Source: Patescibacteria group bacterium (GTDB taxonomy: Bacteria; Patescibacteriota; Patescibacteriia; UBA1558; GWA2-36-10). From it: a DNA stretch of 64,000 nt. The notes beneath the pieces are model-generated. The model ran no database searches and had not been told where the DNA came from. It saw only the letters and a program-made list of their open reading frames with translations. This document shows, piece after piece, positions 4,281 through 60,546 of this stretch (positions are counted from its first letter, which is position 1; each line of letters starts with the position of its first letter). Position numbers and translations under genes: made by a program. The stretch covers positions 147,108 to 211,107 of the forward strand of contig JBAYIR010000001.1 of assembly GCA_041665505.1 (NCBI GenBank). The letters run 5' to 3'.

Positions 4281-4408
4281 AATACGTTCACTACTAAGGT
4301 GGGCTAATTGTGTCTTGTGACCAATACGCCTTAGTATTGGTCATTGAAATAGAGTTTAGTCGAAACACACGCAAGAGAGTCACTCGATAGAGAAGAAGGA
4401 GGAAAGTC

Positions 4409-6622
4409 ATGTATTTGGACAACCAGCAAAGGCTGGGAGAGTTCGGACTCTACCTGGGAGACACCTGGGGATGGGTCTGGCCGGAAATGATCCTGCCCAT
4501 CTTCGCCGTGGCAATTCTGCTCGGCTGGTGGATGGCAGCACTTCGTGTCAAACGTTTGGGAACGGCTGCCTTCAAAGGACAGGGCGGCTTCTGGAACTTC
4601 GCCATCAAGCGGGCGGCTGGTTTGGTCGCCACTGGACTGTTCGGGCTCATCATCCTGGTCAGTGTCCAGTACTTCGGTCAGGAGCGAGTAGCCAAGCACC
4701 ACGACCTGTGGGCTTGGCAAATCAAGGAATTCATCCCCATGCTCAAGGGTGTGGCAGTCGGGGAAGACTCGACTGTTGTCGCGCTTGAAGCCGAGAAGTA
4801 CTACGTCGTTGGCGATGATGAAGAAATTCCCGAGGGCTACTCGCGTGAGTCCTGGGAGAAGTTCATCAATCGGCCGGTTGGTGCCATTGAAGGCACCTTG
4901 GGTCGGCATACCCAGCCTAGGACCTTTGGCAAGGAAAGGGTATATAGGGGTGGTCACCCGCGTTGGTGGGTGGATCCTATCTCCTTGTTTATCCTGCTGT
5001 TGCTCTTGACACAAGTCTTGGGCAAAAGTGGTAAGATTTGGCTCTTCGGTCGCTACATTTGGGGCGTGGTGGTGGTACTGTATCTGATACTGTACCTGAC
5101 ACTCCGTCCTTGGCTCCAAGGTCAGGTGGATTTTTGGAGCCTCACACTGGTCATAAATTTGCTCCAGCTGTGTGTGGTGGCTTTGGTACTGCCTCTGGCC
5201 TGCAGGAAGTTGGTGTGGATGTTGAAGAACAGGCAATGCGTGGTTACTATTGATCCGATCGAAAAGCAGCCCATGGCCTACACTGGGCAGATGTTTTTCG
5301 GTCTGGGGATTGGTACATTTATTGCCTTCACCAGCATTTTCTTCGTGCTCTTGCTTTTTCCTGCAGACATCATCAAGTTGGGTGGGTCCATCCGGACGCG
5401 CTTGATTTACTTGGTGCTGCAGGTGCTTGCCACTGGAGCTTTCTTCTTCTTGACCCAACTGGAGCGGGTTAAGCAGAAGATTATGATTGAGATTCCTCGG
5501 CGTGTCAGTTTGATCGCTGGTGGGATCTTGAGCATCCTGGCTTTTGCCTTGCCGGGTGTCTGGCTTTTCCTGTTCTTGCTGATTTTGATGATCTTGGTTT
5601 ATGAGCTTGGTGCTAATTATCAAGTGCCGATTGCTCATAAGCTGGTTATTGAAATCTTCAAGAAGGATCGCTATGATCCCTGGATTTTCCTCTGGCAGAA
5701 AGAGACCAACCGTATGGCCTCAACATATGGTTGTCTCAAGACTATGTTGAGGGAGGGGCTTCACATTACGCTGGTGGCGATGTGGGCTCCGTGGCTTAGG
5801 GTGTTTGTTTTCGTCGAGGAAATCCTCGAAGTTAACAAATACAAAGTGGATGAGCCTTTGGCTACCAGCAGTGTGCCCTGTAAATTCGAAACCGACGACC
5901 AAGGTCGTTTGATTGAGATTCTGACGGATGGGGAGGGTGTTTCTACTGGGCCGCCAGTGGAGTTTTTCGTGAGTCAACGCTTTGGGATGTACCACGATCC
6001 ACGGCTCTTCCTGCGTCTGTCGCTGGAAGATAGGCGTGATCCAACGGGGCTTCTGAAGCGCGATACTCAGAACCACTTGGCTCGTCTGACGCGCAAGCTT
6101 GGTATGAACCAAGCACTGATCGGAAGTTACTACACTTCCGAGGCCCATTTCTTCTTCTTTGACGGTCCGGGCACAGAGCCTATGACTTTTCCGCAGCTCC
6201 TGCGTCGTGGCTCTATGCGAGTTGTTGGTTTCTTGGAGATGAGCACAGAGCTTTCCGACGGCAATCCTCCTCCCGGCCTTGAGGCTTCCCAGATCGAGCT
6301 GGAGAAAGCTAAGATCGATCTGGAGACCGAGCGGTTGAGAGCGGAGATGGCTGTCATCAAGAAGAAGGCTGAAGGCACTGGCGCCAAGGAGATGATCGAA
6401 GAGATCGAAAAGGCTCTTCAGAAGGGAGCCTCTGCTTTGGCGGCGTCTGAATGGCTCCAGGTCATGGAGCTGGTCAAGAGTGATGCCGTCAAGTGGTTAC
6501 TGCCTTCTGGTCTGATTGACCGCTTGGGCGGTCTGGGTGATGTAGCTCGGCGGCTTGGGGTTAGTGCTCCGACGACGCCAGCTGCTCCGACCTCACCGCC
6601 GGCTCCGCCGGCTGGCGACTAA
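4409..6622 (+). CDS. Hypothetical polytopic membrane protein (about 9 TM helices) with a C-terminal coiled-coil soluble domain and a Pro/Ala-rich tail, in high-GC cassette 1
   Basis: The 737-aa ORF is about 55-60% GC by eye against a roughly 30% background. It has a strong RBS, and a hairpin plus T-run terminator lies downstream. Multiple hydrophobic helices are present, for example ILPIFAVAILLGWWMAAL and SLIAGGILSILAFALPGVWLFLFLLILMILV. The C-terminal region reads ...IELEKAKIDLETERLRAEMAVIKKKAEG... No family is recognised. Confidence 0.6.
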   Translation: MYLDNQQRLGEFGLYLGDTWGWVWPEMILPIFAVAILLGWWMAALRVKRLGTAAFKGQGGFWNFAIKRAAGLVATGLFGLIILVSVQYFGQERVAKHHDLWAWQIKEFIPMLKGVAVGEDSTVVALEAEKYYVVGDDEEIPEGYSRESWEKFINRPVGAIEGTLGRHTQPRTFGKERVYRGGHPRWWVDPISLFILLLLLTQVLGKSGKIWLFGRYIWGVVVVLYLILYLTLRPWLQGQVDFWSLTLVINLLQLCVVALVLPLACRKLVWMLKNRQCVVTIDPIEKQPMAYTGQMFFGLGIGTFIAFTSIFFVLLLFPADIIKLGGSIRTRLIYLVLQVLATGAFFFLTQLERVKQKIMIEIPRRVSLIAGGILSILAFALPGVWLFLFLLILMILVYELGANYQVPIAHKLVIEIFKKDRYDPWIFLWQKETNRMASTYGCLKTMLREGLHITLVAMWAPWLRVFVFVEEILEVNKYKVDEPLATSSVPCKFETDDQGRLIEILTDGEGVSTGPPVEFFVSQRFGMYHDPRLFLRLSLEDRRDPTGLLKRDTQNHLARLTRKLGMNQALIGSYYTSEAHFFFFDGPGTEPMTFPQLLRRGSMRVVGFLEMSTELSDGNPPPGLEASQIELEKAKIDLETERLRAEMAVIKKKAEGTGAKEMIEEIEKALQKGASALAASEWLQVMELVKSDAVKWLLPSGLIDRLGGLGDVARRLGVSAPTTPAAPTSPPAPPAGD

Positions 6623-9230: not shown

Positions 9231-10175
9231 ATGAGTTTTAAAGATAGAAATATTATTAGGCAAATTAGCCAGATTTTTAATTTGGTCAAAAAAAATAATC
9301 GGATAAAAATAATTGGAGCAGTTATTTTGTTAATAGTTTTGTCTCAATGGTTGATGATAAAATTAGTTTATGCTCATAAATTGCCTCTCAGTTCATCAAT
9401 ATTTTTTGCTCAAGTTTATAATCTCAAAGCTGGCACTATAGAAGAGCAATCAGGAGAGCTTGATATTTATTTGAAAGATTTTTTGATTAATAAAAGATTT
9501 GCTGATAAATTATTGAAAGCTACCCCTACTATAGAGGATAGTGTTAAAGATACTGACGCTAGTGAGGAAGAGCTTTCAGGTCTAGTTTGGAGTAAGCTAG
9601 TCAAATTAGCTTGGTTAAATAAATTGGCCAAGGAAAATAATATAGAAGTAAGTTCAGAAGATATTGATGATTATATTAATGCAGTAGGTGGAGTAGATAA
9701 TGTAGAGACAATGCTTAAAAACCAAGGAACTTCTATTGATGAATATAAATATTTTTTAATAGAGCCAGACATATTAGAGAATAAGGTTTATAATCATTTA
9801 ATAACTAGTTTTACAGATCAAAAAGGAGTCCAAAAAATACAAGAAGTTTATAGTCTACTAGAAGCAGAAAATGGCCAGAACTGGGATGAAGTTGTCAAAC
9901 AATATGGTGAAAATGGGTCATTGTCAGATAATAGTTTTTGGTTGTCTGAAGAAGAATTGGTGGATATTTATGAGCCAATTAAAGATATAGAAGCAGGGGA
10001 GTTTAGCAAAATCGTTCAAGCTCCAGATGGTTATATTATTTGGCACTTAGATTCTATCTCTAGTGATGAGACTAAAGTAATGAGAGAAGTCAGGGGTTTG
10101 TTTGTTTATGCTCAGAGTATTGATGATTTTTTTGATGCTTATTTAGATAGTGTCAGTATAAAGAAAATATATTAA
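9231..10175 (+). CDS. Membrane-anchored PpiC-type peptidyl-prolyl isomerase-like protein (PrsA/SurA-like)
   Basis: An N-terminal TM helix is present. The C-terminal segment GEFSKIVQAPDGYIIWHL resembles a parvulin domain. Confidence 0.4.
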   Translation: MSFKDRNIIRQISQIFNLVKKNNRIKIIGAVILLIVLSQWLMIKLVYAHKLPLSSSIFFAQVYNLKAGTIEEQSGELDIYLKDFLINKRFADKLLKATPTIEDSVKDTDASEEELSGLVWSKLVKLAWLNKLAKENNIEVSSEDIDDYINAVGGVDNVETMLKNQGTSIDEYKYFLIEPDILENKVYNHLITSFTDQKGVQKIQEVYSLLEAENGQNWDEVVKQYGENGSLSDNSFWLSEEELVDIYEPIKDIEAGEFSKIVQAPDGYIIWHLDSISSDETKVMREVRGLFVYAQSIDDFFDAYLDSVSIKKIY

Positions 10176-13146: not shown

Positions 13147-13285
13147 ATTTTTTTTCTTATTTCTTATATCTGTATTATATACCGAACAAAAACCGAACGT
13201 CAAGTATTTTATTGTGGATAAGTAAAAAACATTGCTAAAAATAGATATTATTGTTATCTTTAAGCATAATTTTAAGATTAAATAA

Positions 13286-14033: not shown

Positions 14034-14062
14034 TTGACAAAAAATTTCATAAACTATAAAGT
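14034..14062 (+). promoter_or_regulatory. Promoter of cassette 2 unit a (TTGACA ... TATAAA)
   Basis: TTGACA at 14034-14039 is followed 15-17 nt later by TATAAA/TAAAGT. The RBS GGAGGA lies ahead of the ATG at 14129. Confidence 0.45.
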
Positions 14063-14128
14063 ATTTTAGCGTCCCTAGGCTCTTGATTCCTTCCCGCGTG
14101 TGACTCTCACTGAACTGGAGGACTTAGC

Positions 14129-14596
14129 ATGAGCAACATCGTAGGTAGTCCCTTGTTGCAGCGCATTACTGGCTGCTCAACCGACATTGCCACCGCCGCT
14201 CAGCAGGCGGTGGAGAGCCTAATGAAGCATCTTCAAGTTGGCACTTTGGTGCCTGGAAGCTGGAAGCTCTACTGGGCGCCGGAGTACTACAAGGACCCCA
14301 AACTTGAGTACGCTAGTGTCTTTAAGGTAGAGATCATTCTGACCATTCAGGCTCAGGCGGGTAGCCTCCCGCCACAGGACTCGCGGCAGTGGTTCGTAAG
14401 CGAGATCATCGCCTCTGATGATCGTAGCGACAGAGCCATGATGGCCGCCGTGCAGCAGGCTACTGCTGTGATGGTCGAGCACGGCCTCAACGAGAATGAG
14501 TGTCAGAGTCTCATTCTCTGCTACACCAAGGACAACAAGGTCTACTGCTCCTTCTGGCTGTTCTACTACGCCGAGCAGGAAGTGGACTGTCACTGA
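14129..14596 (+). CDS. Hypothetical 155-aa protein (high-GC cassette 2)
   Basis: The ORF is GC-rich and has a GGAGGA RBS with a 7-nt spacer. It is followed by the terminator GGAGGCAGCAC-tgcg-GTGCTGCCTCC. No family is recognised. The antisense ORF 14219-14593 is judged spurious. Confidence 0.5.
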   Translation: MSNIVGSPLLQRITGCSTDIATAAQQAVESLMKHLQVGTLVPGSWKLYWAPEYYKDPKLEYASVFKVEIILTIQAQAGSLPPQDSRQWFVSEIIASDDRSDRAMMAAVQQATAVMVEHGLNENECQSLILCYTKDNKVYCSFWLFYYAEQEVDCH

Positions 14597-14623
14597 GTTT
14601 TGATCCCTCAGCGGATCGTTTTA

Positions 14624-14658
14624 GGAGGCAGCACTGCGGTGCTGCCTCCTGCCTTTTA
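14624..14658 (+). terminator. Intrinsic terminator of cassette 2 unit a
   Basis: An 11-bp stem with a 4-nt loop is followed by TGCCTTTTA. Confidence 0.65.
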
Positions 14659-14693
14659 CTTAATTTTAATTATAGTATTTTGTGTTTATTTAG

Positions 14694-14721
14694 TTGACAA
14701 AAAACTTATTTTAGGTTAATT
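14694..14721 (+). promoter_or_regulatory. Promoter of cassette 2 unit b (TTGACA-16-TTAATT)
   Basis: TTGACA lies at 14694-14699. The -10 element is weak. Confidence 0.35.
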
Positions 14722-14778
14722 TCTTTGGGCTTAGTGTTATTTCACAGTTGACTAGGACTCCAACGAAAGGATTCGAGC

Positions 14779-15093
14779 ATGTCCAAGCGTATGGTGGTTG
14801 TTCAACACAGCCATGTTATTGGAGTGTGTTCTGGTACCGTCAGAGTTGAGCGTCTGGAAAATGCTCAGACTGGCGTCCGTTTCAGGTTGAAGATTGGCAG
14901 TGAGCGTTCTGTCAGTAGCCCTGACATCGCAGAGCTGACCAGCTGTCTCAAAGACCAGGTCTTTGCTCGCCGTGTGAGCCAGGCTTTTACTATGGAGGCG
15001 CCGACTATTTCTTCTCTTCGACCAATGCTTCCCAAGTTCAAGGTGAAGTTCTTAGCCACGAAGGCTCGCCGTGACGAGGATCTGTTCGATTAA
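14779..15093 (+). CDS. Hypothetical 104-aa protein (high-GC cassette 2)
   Basis: The ORF is GC-rich with an AGGA RBS. No family is recognised. Confidence 0.45.
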   Translation: MSKRMVVVQHSHVIGVCSGTVRVERLENAQTGVRFRLKIGSERSVSSPDIAELTSCLKDQVFARRVSQAFTMEAPTISSLRPMLPKFKVKFLATKARRDEDLFD

Positions 15094-15115
15094 ATGTAAA
15101 AAATGGAGGAACTCC

Positions 15116-15343
15116 GTGCCTAAAATCAGCCTGGCCAAGGCTGATCCTATCCGTCAGCAGATACTATTGGTGGTTGAGTCTTGGCCCAAGGCAGAAGGCG
15201 AATGCAAGCCGAGCGCGGTTTGCTGTTTGGTCGCTGAAACTGGTGCGGCTAGCTATGGCGATTGCGCCCAGCAAGTGGCTATCCTTTTGCAACAAGGAGA
15301 ACTGAAAATAGAGCCTCAGCAAAGAGGGCTCTACGTTCCGTGA
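15116..15343 (+). CDS. Hypothetical 75-aa protein (high-GC cassette 2), GTG start
   Basis: A perfect GGAGGA lies 5 nt upstream of the GTG at 15116. The ORF-track start at 15071 would overlap the preceding ORF. The terminator follows immediately. Confidence 0.4.
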   Translation: MPKISLAKADPIRQQILLVVESWPKAEGECKPSAVCCLVAETGAASYGDCAQQVAILLQQGELKIEPQQRGLYVP

Positions 15344-15345
15344 GA

Positions 15346-15380
15346 GGGGCTTCGGGAAACCGAAGCCCCTTAACTTTTTT
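15346..15380 (+). terminator. Intrinsic terminator of cassette 2 unit b
   Basis: GGGGCTTCGG-gaaa-CCGAAGCCCC is followed by TTAACTTTTTT. Confidence 0.75.
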
Positions 15381-16662
15381 ATTGAATAGTTAAATAATAA
15401 TTTTCTTCGGGACTCAGGACAAATAGTCTTTCACCTTTTTTATCAAAGAGATAACTTTTTTTACGAGGGTTGTTGATAAGTTCTATATTATTTCTTTTGT
15501 CTCTACCATCTAATTCAGTCAAAGTAGTGCTATCATTTATTTCTGAGACAAAATAACTACCATTGGGATGCCAAAATACATCAGCTACTATATTAGAGGA
15601 TCTATCAATTAGATTTTGCCAGTCATTTTTATAATTAAAAAGTATTATTTCATGGCCATTGGTCATCAGTAGTCTTTCATCATGCAACTCTACTACCGTA
15701 ATTGGTATAGTAATTAAATCCTTAAAAATATTTTTGATATATAATTTTGAACCCAAAGTAAAGATAAGATAATTATCTTCCACTAGTAATATATCTAAAT
15801 TACCTAAATTGACATTATTTATTACTTGTTTTGTCTCTAGATTACTTTTATTCAGTTGTTCAACAAAATTATTTTTATTCAGAGTATATTGAATGATTAG
15901 CCAATTATCTTTGATAGCAAAATCATTTATAGGGTTTTTAATATTCAAAAGTTCATCAGCTTCACCAGTTGCTTGGTGTTTGTGTCTGTAGAGTTTACTA
16001 TCTTTAAGATAAAGCAAAGTATCGGTGCCATTTTCCCAAACAATTTTTTGTAGACCGATGATGGGTAAAGGGTCTAGTTGTTTTTGATCAATATTAAAGC
16101 TAAAATATTTTGTATCAGCTTGAACTATTATTTGTTGGTTATCTATAGACCAATCAATTAATTCATATTTTTGGTCTAGGGTAGTTATTTCAAAAACCTT
16201 GGCTTGTTCAATATCAGTAATTAATAAGCGTTTCTCATTATCTATAAAAGCATATTTATTTTTATCTTTATTGAGCAAAAATTTTTCACTGCCAGCACTT
16301 AAAATTGTTTTTGGTCTATTGTCTAAAAATAATACAATATCTTCGGCAAAAGTAGTTTCTCCAGAATAAATATCCAGTTCTTTGTTCCAAGTTACATAAT
16401 TATCTTTACTGACTTTTAACTTATGCGTGCCGGGGGGTATATTTACTACTTGAGTGGGAGTTTTGTTTTTATTTTTTTTGTCATTTACAAAAATTTCTGC
16501 ACCACGAGGGAAAGATTTGATATAAAAAGCGCCATTTTTTTTGAGATTACCAGTTTTAAAATCATACCTATAGCCCAAAGAATAGGTCGTTAGTAACGGT
16601 GCTAAAATAAAAAATAGTATAAAAAATATTGAAACAGTAATTTTTCTAAAGATTTTTTCCAT
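15379..16662 (-). CDS. PEGA-domain/beta-propeller-like envelope protein
   Basis: An N-terminal TM helix is present. A PEGA-like segment (FYIKSFPRGAEIFVNDKK...GTHKLKVSKDNYVTWNKELDIYSGETT) is followed by a repeat-rich C-terminal region. Confidence 0.55.
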   Translation of the reverse strand: MEKIFRKITVSIFFILFFILAPLLTTYSLGYRYDFKTGNLKKNGAFYIKSFPRGAEIFVNDKKNKNKTPTQVVNIPPGTHKLKVSKDNYVTWNKELDIYSGETTFAEDIVLFLDNRPKTILSAGSEKFLLNKDKNKYAFIDNEKRLLITDIEQAKVFEITTLDQKYELIDWSIDNQQIIVQADTKYFSFNIDQKQLDPLPIIGLQKIVWENGTDTLLYLKDSKLYRHKHQATGEADELLNIKNPINDFAIKDNWLIIQYTLNKNNFVEQLNKSNLETKQVINNVNLGNLDILLVEDNYLIFTLGSKLYIKNIFKDLITIPITVVELHDERLLMTNGHEIILFNYKNDWQNLIDRSSNIVADVFWHPNGSYFVSEINDSTTLTELDGRDKRNNIELINNPRKKSYLFDKKGERLFVLSPEENYYLTIQ

Positions 16663-33058: not shown

Positions 33059-34654
33059 ATGAAAGCAATAAATGTCTCAAGAGTATCAACCGAAGAACAA
33101 AAAGAAGCTGGTAATTCTTTGCCTGCTCAGATTGAACGTGTAGACGCTTATTGTAAGAGAAAAGATTTTGAAGTTATTAAATCTTTTAGTTTTGATGAAA
33201 GTGCTTATAAAGATAAGCGAGATGAGTTTGATAAACTACTTGAGTATGTTCAAAAAATAGCCACAAAGGAAAAGGTGGCTGTTTGTTTTGATAAAGTAGA
33301 CAGACTTTCAAGAAGTGTATTTGATAAGAGAGTTGCCGTATTTTATCAAATGGCTTTAGAAGATAAAATAGAGTTGCATTTTGTTTCAGACAATCAAATC
33401 ATAAACGGAAAATTATCGGCAACAGAAAAAAGTGGATTTGGTATGAGCCTTGTAATGGCTAGTTACTATTCAAATGCAATAAGTGATAATGTTAAGAGAG
33501 CATTTGAGCAAAAAAGACGTAATGGAGAATGGACAGGGCAAGTACGCTTAGGGTATTTAAACGTTAGTTTAGACCAAGCAAAAAGATTACGCAAAGACAT
33601 TATCATAGACCCAGACAAAGGGCATCTTATACAGAAAATGTTTGAACTCTATGCTACTGACCAATACTCTTTGAAAACCTTGCAAATTAAAATTAGTGAG
33701 CTTGGTTTGAGAACTCGCTATGGAAATAAACTTTCATTAAGTGGCATAGAAAAAATCATTAAGGACAGTTTTTATTGTGGTATTGCTATGTCAACAAAGT
33801 ATGGTTCTTATGCCCATAAATATCCTCGTTTAATATCAAGAGAACTCTTTGATAAGTGCCAACAGATACGCACCAAACGCAATAAAATGCCCTATAAGGC
33901 ACACTCTAAGGACTTTATGCTAAAAGGCCTGTTAAGATGTAATAATTGTGGTTGTTTAATGAGCCCTCAAAAACAGACTAAGAAAAGTGGACTTGAATTT
34001 ATCTATTATACTTGTACGAATGCCAAAGGTATATGCAAAAAAATATATATACCAGAAAAAGACCTTTTAAAACCAATCTATGATGTTTTAGAAAGATTTG
34101 AGAGTATAAGTGAGGAAGTACAGAATGGTCTTGTTGAGGAATTACGCAAATGTACCGAAATAGAAGTAGTATTTCATAAGGCACAAATAAATCGTATTCG
34201 AACAGATTATGATAATTTAAAAGCGAAGCAAAATAGACTTCTTGATGCATTTTTAGACCAGAGTATTACTAAGGACATCTATGACAAGAAACATCAAGAG
34301 TATCAAGACCAAATACAAACTTTAGAAATTGAAATGTCTGAACATCAGAAAGCAGATTTTGATTACAAAACTACTGTCGCTACAGTCATTTCCGTAGCAC
34401 GCAGAGCAAAAACTATATTTGAAAATAGTTCTGAAGTTGCTGGAAAAAGAACATTTTTGAGTTACATACTTCAGAACCCGATTGTAACAGGTAGAATACT
34501 TACCTTTGACCTCAAAAAACCCTTTGATTTAGTGCTAAGTCTTGCTGATAACCAAAGAAAAAAGACTATCGTTTCTGATAGTCATCTTTCTTGGCTCGGG
34601 GACAGGGATTCGAACCCCGGTTGGCTGGACCAAAACCAGCTGTCCTACCACTAG
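33059..34654 (+). CDS. Large serine recombinase (integrase)
   Basis: The N-terminal resolvase domain carries the catalytic Ser (NVSRVSTEEQ). A recombinase domain, a zinc ribbon (CNNCGC...YYTC) and a coiled coil follow. The last roughly 63 nt overlap the tRNA-Gln on the opposite strand. Confidence 0.85.
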   Translation: MKAINVSRVSTEEQKEAGNSLPAQIERVDAYCKRKDFEVIKSFSFDESAYKDKRDEFDKLLEYVQKIATKEKVAVCFDKVDRLSRSVFDKRVAVFYQMALEDKIELHFVSDNQIINGKLSATEKSGFGMSLVMASYYSNAISDNVKRAFEQKRRNGEWTGQVRLGYLNVSLDQAKRLRKDIIIDPDKGHLIQKMFELYATDQYSLKTLQIKISELGLRTRYGNKLSLSGIEKIIKDSFYCGIAMSTKYGSYAHKYPRLISRELFDKCQQIRTKRNKMPYKAHSKDFMLKGLLRCNNCGCLMSPQKQTKKSGLEFIYYTCTNAKGICKKIYIPEKDLLKPIYDVLERFESISEEVQNGLVEELRKCTEIEVVFHKAQINRIRTDYDNLKAKQNRLLDAFLDQSITKDIYDKKHQEYQDQIQTLEIEMSEHQKADFDYKTTVATVISVARRAKTIFENSSEVAGKRTFLSYILQNPIVTGRILTFDLKKPFDLVLSLADNQRKKTIVSDSHLSWLGDRDSNPGWLDQNQLSYH

Positions 34655-34665
34655 ACGATCCCCGA
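34592..34665 (-). tRNA. tRNA-Gln (anticodon UUG)
   Basis: The minus-strand read is TCGGGGATCGTCTAGTGGTAGGACAGCTGGTTTTGGTCCAGCCAACCGGGGTTCGAATCCCTGTCCCCGAGCCA. It has a 7-bp acceptor stem (U1-A72), an anticodon stem GCTGG/CCAGC with loop TTTTGGT, a T-loop TTCGAAT, discriminator G and an encoded CCA. Confidence 0.8.
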
Positions 34666-36139: not shown

Positions 36140-36190
36140 ATTATACATAAAATAACACTTAATTCAAGTATATTTCTTTATTTTTGTCAA
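36140..36190 (-). promoter_or_regulatory. Promoter region for the lipoprotein operon (minus strand): TTGACA, then TTGAAT-16-TATAAT
   Basis: On the minus strand, TTGACAAAAATAAAGAAATATACTTGAATTAAGTGTTATTTTATGTATAAT is present. A roughly 75-nt leader contains the tandem 11-bp repeat GCAAAACGCCA x2. Confidence 0.45.
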
Positions 36191-36854: not shown

Positions 36855-36875
36855 GGTTTTGCTCCTAGCTGAAGT

Positions 36876-36943
36876 GTCGGTTACGCTACTGGCTCAGGAT
36901 TGTCCAAGCGTCCAAATACAGACAATCCGTCTTCGCCTCACTC
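36876..36943 (+). repeat. Cassette-3 direct repeat copy A (about 67 bp, internal 7-bp dyad GATTGTC-N16-GACAATC)
   Basis: GTCGGTTACGCTACTGGCTCAGGATTGTCCAAGCGTCCAAATACAGACAATCCGTCTTCGCCTCACT. It lies 22 nt 5' of the REC gene start when read on the minus strand. Confidence 0.7.
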
Positions 36944-36974
36944 AGTCTCTCCTGTGTCGCCGATGAAGCTGATT

Positions 36975-37145
36975 TCAGTCAGACAGGCCTTTCTGTAGGG
37001 CTTTGGCCAGTTCATCTTCGTTCAGGTGACGCGTCGCAAACCTGACCTGCCGATACAATACCTTGGTATCGTAGTCCAGGTTTTCGTTGAGCCGGGCAAT
37101 GTGCTCTTGCACAATCTTGATATTCCGCCGGTGTTGGGGGCTCAT
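36975..37145 (-). CDS. Hypothetical 56-aa protein (MSPQHRRNIKIVQEHIARLNENLDYDTKVLYRQVRFATRHLNEDELAKALQKGLSD)
   Basis: An RBS AGGGAG lies 11 nt upstream of the ATG. The ORF-track start at 37178 is rejected. It is preceded by repeat copy B and an extended -10 (TGTTATACT). Confidence 0.35.
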   Translation of the reverse strand: MSPQHRRNIKIVQEHIARLNENLDYDTKVLYRQVRFATRHLNEDELAKALQKGLSD

Positions 37146-37223
37146 AGTATTCACACTCCCTGTTTTTGGGTAACACAAAACACCTCAAAGAGGCGTTTTG
37201 GCTAAGTATAACACAGCAAAAGT

Positions 37224-37290
37224 GCCGGTTACGCTACTAGCTCCAGATTGTCCAAGCGTCCAGATACAGACAATCCTTCTTCGCCTCACT
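37224..37290 (+). repeat. Cassette-3 direct repeat copy B
   Basis: GCCGGTTACGCTACTAGCTCCAGATTGTCCAAGCGTCCAGATACAGACAATCCTTCTTCGCCTCACT. It is about 90% identical to copy A. Confidence 0.7.
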
Positions 37291-37387
37291 GCTTCTCTTA
37301 TTTTGGTAAAGAACTTAGTTTACAAAAAAATACCCTTTCAGGCATTTCTGTAAATTAAGCTCTCAATATTGAGATTTATTACGCAAT

Positions 37388-37454
37388 GCCGGTTACGCTA
37401 CTAGCTCCAGATTGTCCAAGCGTCCAGATACAGACAATCCTTCAAAGCCTCATT
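37388..37454 (+). repeat. Cassette-3 direct repeat copy C
   Basis: It is identical to copy B over the first 54 nt (GCCGGTTACGC...GACAATCCTTC), and the tail then diverges. It lies just downstream (on the minus strand) of the ZIP gene stop and a TTGACA motif at 37505-37510. Confidence 0.7.
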
Positions 37455-37514
37455 GAATGATATTTATTGTAAATTATTAATACCCTACCACATAATTTTT
37501 ATTTTGTCAAGACC

Positions 37515-60062: not shown

Positions 60063-60452
60063 GGCCTAAATAGACCTCATAAGCCGAATTCTGTATTTCA
60101 GCAAATACTGAAATGATGATCATCTATCTAGGATTACAATCACTTGTAACCTCAAGCAGCCTACCCGTCCCCGAAGGGACCTATTTGGCCTTTCACCAGA
60201 TAGAAGTTTACCTCTTTCTACATGTCACCATGTAAACGTGTCGACTGATTATTCGACATTTTCACCCTTACCCATTCGACTCAGCCTTGCGGCTTTGCTC
60301 AGGGAGGAATATTCTCTGTTGCACTTGTCCTAACCTCAAACTCGCATTGAGGCTGGTTGGCGTTACCAACTATCTTTTTTATGGTGTTCGGACTTTCCTC
60401 TACCTATAGCTTTACGCTAAAGGTAGCAATCATCTCAGTCTATTTAGACCTT
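60063..60452 (-). ncRNA. rnpB: RNase P RNA (bacterial type A)
   Basis: The minus strand contains GGTAGAGGAAAGTCCGAACACCA (the P4 5' strand), AGTGCAACAGAGAAT, GGGTAAGGGTGAAAATG, GGGTAGGCTGCTTGAGG and ACAGAATTCGGCTTATGAGG (the P4 3' strand). The P1 stem is GGTCTAAATAGAC/GTCTATTTAGGCC. A TTGACA promoter lies upstream and a T-run at the 3' end. Confidence 0.9.
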
Positions 60453-60546
60453 GTGTCTATTGTGTAACAGATTTTATCAATTTTGTCAAGGAAAATAAGT
60501 AATAGATGTTTACTAAATATAAGGCAAATGATATTATATTTATACT

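Follow-up and report, generated by a model that had tools for sequence, protein, structure and literature searches.

The present analysis concerns cassette 2, a GC-rich cluster of three small open reading frames (ORFs) at positions 14034-15380 of a 64,000-nucleotide stretch of DNA from a Patescibacteria group bacterium (assembly GCA_041665505.1, contig JBAYIR010000001.1). This whole stretch is referred to as the window, and coordinates relate to it unless another locus is named. Genomes of the Candidate Phyla Radiation (CPR)/Patescibacteria are rich in unannotated genes, and the biology of these organisms as ultra-small episymbionts is poorly understood. The window has an overall GC content of about 31% and contains three islands of about 50% GC, at 4.2-6.7, 14.07-15.37 and 34.7-37.5 kb, the second of which (about 50-57% GC) is cassette 2. 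It is located between lexA/vut_1 and the PEGA-murA genes, and is surrounded by genes of ordinary housekeeping function (L27, LexA, Vut_1, a PEGA-domain protein, MurA, a CtpB-like protease, L9 and CTP synthase). Source annotations likewise give the organism as "Patescibacteria group bacterium". Homologous cassettes were fetched from independent assemblies: loci L003-L005 do not differ from the window, DNA identity to it is 80-87% for L001, L002 and L006, and L012 displays 51% identity to the window in the ORF1 protein.

A first-pass annotation made from the letters of the DNA had proposed two back-to-back mini transcription units encoding proteins of 155, 104 and 75 amino acids. Two promoters of the sigma-70 type, three ORFs of exactly these sizes with Shine-Dalgarno (SD) sites, and two intrinsic terminators were indeed found, all on the forward strand. 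Unit a starts with promoter P1 (14034-14062), composed of a -35 box TTGACA (14034-14039), a 17-nt spacer and a -10 box TAAAGT (14057-14062), with 10 of 12 matches in a promoter scan and a T-run upstream. P1 is identical in L001 and L006, although the 5' leader downstream of it diverges. An SD motif GGAGGA (14117-14122), read from the sequence, lies 6 nt ahead of the ATG of ORF1 (14129-14596; 155 amino acids), a clade-restricted orphan whose GC content at third codon positions (GC3) is 0.73. The unit is closed by the intrinsic terminator T1 (14622-14661), with a GC-rich stem (14622-14651), a 4-nt loop and a T-tract. Promoter, ORF and terminator had thus been described correctly for this unit; the stem, given as 11 bp, comprises 13 pairs counting G-U, or 12 perfectly complementary ones. 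In L001/L002 the stem has changed in a compensatory manner, from C-G to U-A.

Unit b is driven by promoter P2 (14694-14722), with -35 TTGACA (14694-14699), a 17-nt spacer and -10 TAATTT (14717-14722). This -10 box has 3 of 6 matches, below the threshold of the promoter scan, and P2 was hence not listed by it. P2 forms a 22-nt direct repeat of P1 and is kept base for base in L001, L002, L006 and L012. The SD motif AAAGGA (14766-14771), inside the conserved element CGAAAGGATTC, precedes by 7 nt the ATG of ORF2 (14779-15093; 104 amino acids), an orphan and the first gene of this bicistronic unit. The second gene, the orphan ORF3 (15116-15343; 75 amino acids), starts with GTG at 15116, 5 nt past the SD motif GGAGGA (15105-15110), as the first-pass annotation had read it. 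The GGAG motif and the non-ATG start (GTG; TTG in L012) are conserved across lineages. The 75-residue ORF had further been described as overlapping the 104-residue one, but 23 nt separate the ORF2 stop (15093) from the ORF3 start. An in-frame GTG upstream at 15071 would yield a 90-residue version overlapping ORF2, without start-site support. Terminator T2 (15344-15381; 12-bp stem at 15344-15371, 4-nt loop, T-tract) begins immediately behind the ORF3 stop and separates ORF3 from the convergent PEGA gene; its stem has undergone a compensatory G-C to A-U change in L001/L002.

The spacer between ORF2 and ORF3 is evolutionarily plastic. L001 (approximately 9398-9472) and L002 (approximately 891-965) carry a 44-nt insertion at this point, with SD site and GTG retained; the insertion forms a perfect 11-bp hairpin (GTGGCTCACCG...CGGTGAGCCAC) without a T-tract. 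In L012 an extra ORF of 72 amino acids (2328-2546) takes the place of the insertion.

Both cassette promoters contain an extended -35 motif, TTGACAAAAW, found 6 times in the window versus 1.2 expected. Besides the sites at 14034 and 14694, it occurs on the reverse strand at 36181 and 37501 in island 3, at the uncharacterised site 52663, and at 60480, immediately upstream of the gene for RNase P RNA (60064-60445, reverse strand). This motif appears to be a strong promoter type of the clade. Taken together, these features show cassette 2 to be made up of two transcription units that are independent of each other and driven by host promoters.

All three ORFs are open in L001, L002, L006 and L012. 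The indels inside them measure 3, 3 and 9 nt, all multiples of three, the 3-nt indel in the five-lineage alignment of ORF2 being in frame, and substitutions are enriched at third codon positions. Ratios of nonsynonymous to synonymous divergence (dN/dS; Nei-Gojobori) are 0.12-0.29 for ORF1, 0.21-0.39 for ORF2 and 0.27-0.31 for ORF3. Values of about 1, or matches to ordinary metabolic enzymes, had been named beforehand as results that would speak against the first-pass reading; the ORFs are conserved as coding, and no match to an ordinary enzyme was found. The conservation of the 75-residue GTG-start ORF, for which a check had been proposed, is borne out by its open frame, its dN/dS and the retained non-ATG start. 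Coding conservation extends over four independent strain lineages and a relative of 50% identity. Judged by these substitution patterns, all three ORFs are genuine genes under selection. A long, codon-aligned antisense ORF also runs over ORF1. We rejected it as a gene: it is due to the absence of TTA, CTA and TCA codons in the sense frame, and it is interrupted in the window.

Synonymous divergence (dS) of the cassette between the window and other strains is 0.6-1.3, and that of flanking host genes is 0.2-0.8, which we take as the same range; the cassette has thus kept pace with the chromosome in its divergence. The cassette of L006 (1349-2730) is a mosaic, with an ORF1 leader identical to the window, an L002-like ORF1 body and a different C-terminus (…AEKEM). 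This mosaic structure indicates homologous recombination among strains inside the island.

A word-indexed search of 5.8 billion proteins returned strain-level relatives only. Three further relatives of ORF1, namely P0008 (51% identity), P0009 (32%) and P0010 (30%), came from exhaustive HMMER profile searching of 1.84 billion representatives, which also returned one spurious repeat protein. The contigs traced for the distant homologues are Patescibacteria-like. No relatives were found on viral contigs, and a metagenome scan yielded nothing new. Within the 64-kb window none of the three genes has a paralogue, each being single-copy. Gene order in L011 and L012 is LexA, PEP-utilising enzyme, Vut_1 and the ORF1 homologue; in L012 this is followed by the ORF2 homologue, the extra 72-residue ORF, which is a distant ORF3 paralogue, and the ORF3 homologue, whereas the contig of L011 ends just past the ORF1 homologue. 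L013 displays the order PEP-utilising enzyme, ORF1 homologue and an unrelated gene, and L010 (metagenome-assembled genome STD1_117) the order L27, LexA, ORF1 homologue, PEGA and MurA. The cassette or ORF1 hence occupies the same syntenic site in six lineages, and its borders are free of recombinase genes, tRNA genes and direct repeats.

The three genes are specific to the clade and have been passed on vertically at one fixed position, with ORF1 a long-standing occupant of the LexA-PEGA-MurA locus. Since ORF1 occurs without ORF2 and ORF3 in L010 and L013, the trio is not an obligate unit. By the same comparison, ORF2-ORF3 form a separate bicistronic pair confined to a subclade, with an ORF3 paralogue that arose in one lineage.

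These data bear on the suggestion, made in the first-pass annotation, that the genes resemble toxin-antitoxin (TA), anti-sigma or regulator trios. In such a trio, ORF2-ORF3 would form a toxin-antitoxin or regulator-antagonist pair, and ORF1 would be a third component expressed on its own. ORF2 and ORF3 are small, co-transcribed from one promoter to one terminator and separated by only 23 nt; ORF3 may be a DNA-binding winged helix (see below), and some lineages lack the pair, which is partly duplicated in L012. However, TA modules are typically mobile and patchy, while these genes have one copy each in the window, lie at one and the same chromosomal position in every strain with host-like dS, and have no relatives on viral contigs or beyond the clade. 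Furthermore, searches of Pfam, NCBIfam, PHROGs and PADLOC at cut-offs as loose as E = 1-10 gave no match to a family of toxins, antitoxins, sigma or anti-sigma factors or defence proteins, no sigma factor gene adjoins the cassette, and ORF1 occurs without the pair. We therefore consider such a trio improbable, and the analogy did not hold up. A two-gene role as regulator plus partner may apply to ORF2-ORF3 alone. A phage or defence origin of the cassette was likewise considered and discarded, there being no PHROG, PADLOC or viral-contig relatives.

The most unusual property of the cassette concerns the composition of ORF1 and the folding of its mRNA. The GC content of the cassette is 0.52-0.55, and GC3 is 0.73 in ORF1, 0.55 in ORF2 and 0.53 in ORF3, versus 0.20-0.30 in host genes of the window; the first-pass annotation had rightly called all three ORFs GC-rich. 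In the spacer between the units (14650-14750), which holds P2, GC drops to 23%. The dip falls exactly at the promoter spacer, and thus the transcribed bodies are the GC-rich part. An excess of GC3 in ORF1 is present in all six lineages (0.57-0.80, versus 0.20-0.48 in host genes): the ORF1 homologues of L001, L002 and L006 have GC3 values of 0.78-0.80 (host genes about 0.2), that of L012 0.65 (host 0.27), that of L013 0.77 (host 0.35) and that of L010 0.57 (host 0.48).

Such a composition is atypical, in sharp contrast with the host, and may suggest that the cassette is foreign DNA, an island acquired horizontally from a donor of about 50-55% GC, whose composition would be an unameliorated relic without selective meaning. 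The presence of two other GC-rich islands in the window, one of them beside a large serine recombinase gene and a tRNA-Gln gene, and the recombination at the locus visible in L006 are in line with this explanation. On the other hand, no donor is visible, as the exhaustive profile search found relatives only in syntenic Patescibacteria loci. The site is the same in every relative, with borders that lack marks of insertion, dS is like that of host genes, and the promoters are of the host's own AT-rich type. In addition, the GC3 excess persists over distances at which host genes are far past synonymous saturation, the PEGA proteins of the window and L010 being 53% identical in amino acids. A neutral relic of transfer should have ameliorated by now, and we therefore infer that the composition of ORF1 is maintained and that the cassette's composition is not a relic of recent horizontal transfer. 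Foreign DNA as the explanation appears unlikely to us, though less so than the trio discussed above.

Polarised synonymous changes do not separate these possibilities. On ingroup tips the island displays 20 GC>AT to 11 AT>GC changes, versus 24 to 14 predicted from host per-site rates. The observed counts equal the host-rate prediction and reveal no special regime, which fits foreign DNA as well. We discarded them as proof of selection on GC3, the test being non-discriminating and the host control itself odd. This control is the PEGA gene (15379-16662, reverse strand; orthologues in L001, L002 and L006), with a GC3 of 0.20, in which 42 AT>GC and 11 GC>AT polarised third-position synonymous changes were counted. 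Such an excess of AT>GC is far from the balance of compositional equilibrium; segregating slightly deleterious variants, recombination or parsimony bias are possible causes.

The messenger RNA (mRNA) of ORF1 is unusual as well. Folding z-scores were computed from the minimum free energy (MFE) of a sequence relative to shuffles that permute synonymous codons, with the protein and the codon counts fixed and dinucleotides across codon borders not preserved. In the six lineages the ORF1 coding sequence gives values of -4.5 to -4.9 (window), -2.9, -2.9, -2.3, -2.2 and -4.6, i.e. the mRNA is more stable than its synonymous shuffles in six of six lineages. When five orthologues were retested, no more than 1 of 60 shuffles was as stable as the real sequence. 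Control values range from -1.4 to +2.4 for eleven host-gene segments, and from -2.5 to +1.9 (mean about -0.3) for nine E. coli genes of about 50% GC. The high GC3 of ORF1 across lineages and the surplus stability of its mRNA are a real pattern.

GC-rich islands in AT-rich genomes are often RNA genes. Accordingly, the GC-rich segments might be genes for one or more structured non-coding RNAs, with the ORFs as by-products of composition. The units run from promoter to terminator and share the promoter type found upstream of the RNase P RNA gene; the whole transcripts have folding z-scores of -4.7 and -5.2, terminator hairpins included; among close orthologues 10 compensatory pairs were counted, versus 4.3 in shuffles and 1-4 in slid controls; and a long antisense ORF covers ORF1. 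However, Rfam searches at the gathering threshold and at E = 10 gave no relevant match in the cassette. Their matches in the window are RNase P RNA, one tRNA-Gln and three c-di-GMP-II aptamers (in island 3), with no rRNA in the 64 kb. On this result and on the coding signature, we rejected the idea that a structured RNA or an rRNA gives rise to the GC island: dN/dS is far below 1, third positions are in excess among substitutions, all indels are in frame, and SD sites and start codons are conserved. Homology can be seen between proteins that are 30% identical, at a nucleotide identity of 42-50%, and the MFE structures of distant ORF1 orthologues have no base pairs in common. The covariation term of RNAalifold is positive (+3.85), and the antisense ORF is explained by codon usage. 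The non-coding explanation is thus largely refuted already, and we regard what is left of it as very improbable. As the structure is not conserved in detail, the folding signal is one of generic excess stability and not of a defined RNA fold.

Selection on the RNA itself would be the likeliest cause that keeps the transcripts GC-rich and the ORF1 mRNA over-folded, and the benefit would probably be transcript stability in an AU-rich cell. In its widest form, this idea implies that the clade maintains, by RNA-level selection, a class of orphan genes with GC-rich, over-folded transcripts (GC3 up to 0.8 in a genome of 31% GC), ORF1 and a 737-residue gene of island 1 being examples; we put this forward as a speculative and rather unlikely generalization. 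Several of our own results weigh against RNA-level selection. Folding z-scores of ORF2 (-0.3 to -2.6) and ORF3 (-0.6 to -2.9) are inconsistent, the shuffles leave border dinucleotides free, and the polarised changes follow host rates. Moreover, the covariation term has the wrong sign, distant orthologues share no pairs, and the compensatory pairs were scored on a structure derived from the same five sequences.

At the protein level, the three ORFs gave no match in Pfam, NCBIfam, PHROGs or PADLOC, even at permissive thresholds, in agreement with their initial description as unrecognised, and sequence-profile searches against the PDB produced chance-level matches only. Structure prediction, which had been proposed at the outset, was run for ORF1 with AlphaFold2. 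A model from 3 sequences (predicted local distance difference test, pLDDT, of 46) was unusable; the model used here, from 6 sequences, reached a pLDDT of 83 and a predicted template-modelling score (pTM) of 0.77. It consists of two tandem beta-alpha-beta-beta units (residues 7-73 and 87-148), with strands at 7-17, 45-55 and 62-73 and a helix at 20-37 in the first, and strands at 87-97, 125-134 and 137-148 and a helix at 100-117 in the second. A confident fold prediction was thereby obtained, but not a significant match to a known structure, since Foldseek of the model against the PDB returned nothing significant. Its top-ranked non-significant matches include a GyrI-like tag derived from CTR107 (template-modelling score, TM, of 0.29; a poor superposition) and archease. 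Conserved aromatic residues are W45, Y48, W88, F145 and Y146.

GyrI-like proteins, e.g. SbmC, contain a domain of about 150 amino acids made of two tandem beta-alpha-beta-beta (SHS2) repeats and bind small molecules (PMC5684135). This architecture is matched by ORF1 solely in the order of predicted secondary-structure elements. None of the 6 members of the ORF1 family matches PF06445 (GyrI-like), even at E = 10, or any NCBIfam model. An hhalign comparison of the ORF1 family with an alignment of 7 GyrI-like sequences, built from E. coli sbmC and plasmid-borne relatives, gave a weak match (probability 14%, P = 0.0019, 116 collinear columns). Based on the model, ORF1 may fold as a pseudo-dimer of two SHS2-type units and resembles a tandem-SHS2 binder in predicted topology, while membership in the GyrI-like family is unproven. 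Because this architecture is that of stand-alone GyrI-like proteins, we hypothesize that ORF1 most likely acts as a small-molecule- or protein-binding protein with a sequestering or protective role, and not as a core-metabolic enzyme. A point against the two-unit fold is that the N- and C-terminal halves display no in-register similarity in BLASTP or hhalign. An in-register repeat inside ORF1 was also sought and dismissed, only a short out-of-register motif being found; a 16-nt direct repeat at 84-codon spacing may be due to chance.

The position of lexA next to ORF1 in L010 and the analogy to SbmC raised the idea of SOS control of ORF1. A conserved element, CCGAACAAAAACCGAA, is present just upstream of lexA in the window (13182-13197) and in L001, L006, L010 and L011, with exactly one copy per locus. 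Its arrangement suggests a direct repeat of CCGAA(C) more than a palindrome, and it is probably the LexA operator of the clade. The element occurs only upstream of lexA, and the ORF1 promoters of the window and L010 lack it; therefore there is no sign of SbmC-like SOS control, and the idea was dropped.

ORF3 contains three invariant cysteines (C30, C36 and C50) and a nearly invariant C-terminus, LLQQGELKIEPQQRGLYVP, and its start codon is non-ATG in all lineages. It gave sub-threshold matches (E about 0.05-0.09) to two unrelated winged-helix models. This data may weakly suggest that ORF3 is a small, cysteine-containing, winged-helix-like DNA-binding protein, produced at a low level from its non-ATG start; such E-values as its foundation speak against the assignment. 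For ORF2 no informative similarity was found in any family or PDB search. It might be the co-expressed partner of ORF3, the pair representing a regulator/partner module, which is again weakly inferred.

The two other GC-rich islands of the window offer some observations in their own right. Island 1 contains an orphan ORF of 737 amino acids (4409-6622, forward strand; GC3 0.64) without Pfam match, overlapped by an antisense ORF of 435 amino acids (4331-5638). Its folding z-scores versus synonymous shuffles are -3.7 (4409-4876), -3.5 (4877-5344) and -7.9 (5345-5812), the last segment having an MFE of -202 kcal/mol for 468 nt at 49% GC; large inverted repeats do not account for this folding. In island 3 the three c-di-GMP-II aptamers (36866-37461, reverse strand; 65-72 bits, above the gathering score) are interleaved with GC-rich small ORFs of 67 and 134 amino acids and followed downstream by small ORFs whose N-termini resemble signal peptides or those of lipoproteins. 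At the edge of this island, a large serine recombinase gene (33059-34665; 531 amino acids, AT-rich like the host) runs into tRNA-Gln(TTG) on the opposite strand (34592-34665), a junction that resembles an integration boundary of a mobile element. A search of the literature on GC-rich islands or c-di-GMP-II riboswitches in Patescibacteria/CPR yielded nothing relevant.

Taken as a whole, the dataset is best explained by two transcription units encoding three clade-restricted small cytoplasmic proteins, with ORF1 as a binder of GyrI-like type, ORF3 and ORF2 as regulator and partner, and RNA-level selection acting on the transcripts. We offer this complete account tentatively, as a combination that may well fail in one of its parts, and consider it more probable than any of the alternatives weighed above.

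Three ORFs that were "hypothetical" are now two defined units with evidence of selection, and the cassette displays a reproducible anomaly of composition and mRNA folding. The fold assignment of ORF1 is testable, and a ligand binder of GyrI-like type could be connected with detoxification or with the protection of gyrase in a cell of minimal metabolism. If RNA-level selection holds, the cassette would be a natural case of mRNA design at the level of single genes in a reduced genome, and it would provide a simple genomic marker for a special class of genes, with mRNAs built for unusual stability, or with a second role at the RNA level, in an ultra-small episymbiont. If it does not, the cassette would be an ordinary set of lineage-specific small proteins.

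Known systems resemble individual parts of the cassette. Type II TA modules, like ORF2-ORF3, consist of two small adjacent genes with one promoter and one terminator, one product of the pair possibly binding DNA; in contrast to them, ORF2-ORF3 lack toxin or antitoxin homology, are single-copy, are inherited vertically at a fixed site, and are absent from viral contigs and other taxa. Small winged-helix proteins, such as the winged-helix domains of archaeal MCM and of phage replication initiators, fit ORF3 in length (66-78 amino acids) and in the pattern of three helices plus a C-terminal hairpin, and two independent models of this type were matched below threshold. However, those matches stay at E = 0.05-0.09, a PDB sequence match is missing, and three invariant cysteines are no hallmark of winged helices.

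Dodecin, a single flavin-binding beta-alpha-beta-beta unit, has the same topology as one half of ORF1. The Streptomyces dodecin 6ri3_A aligns over 72 columns with a target-normalised TM of 0.52, a non-significant match at rank 48 of the Foldseek list (E = 1.8). ORF1 differs from it as a covalent tandem of two units, and it has no dodecin match in Pfam. Stand-alone GyrI-like proteins (PF06445), such as SbmC/GyrI of E. coli, CTR107 and SAV2435, differ from ORF1 in several respects: ORF1 has no significant sequence match to them, superimposes on the CTR107-derived structure with the low TM given above, and is confined to one clade of Patescibacteria. While sbmC is SOS-induced, ORF1 has no LexA operator, and its GC-rich, over-folded mRNA is without counterpart, the folding z-score of E. 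coli sbmC being +1.9. Common to both are a similar size (155 amino acids in ORF1, 157 in SbmC), a single-domain, cytoplasmic organization, and conserved aromatic residues on the strands.

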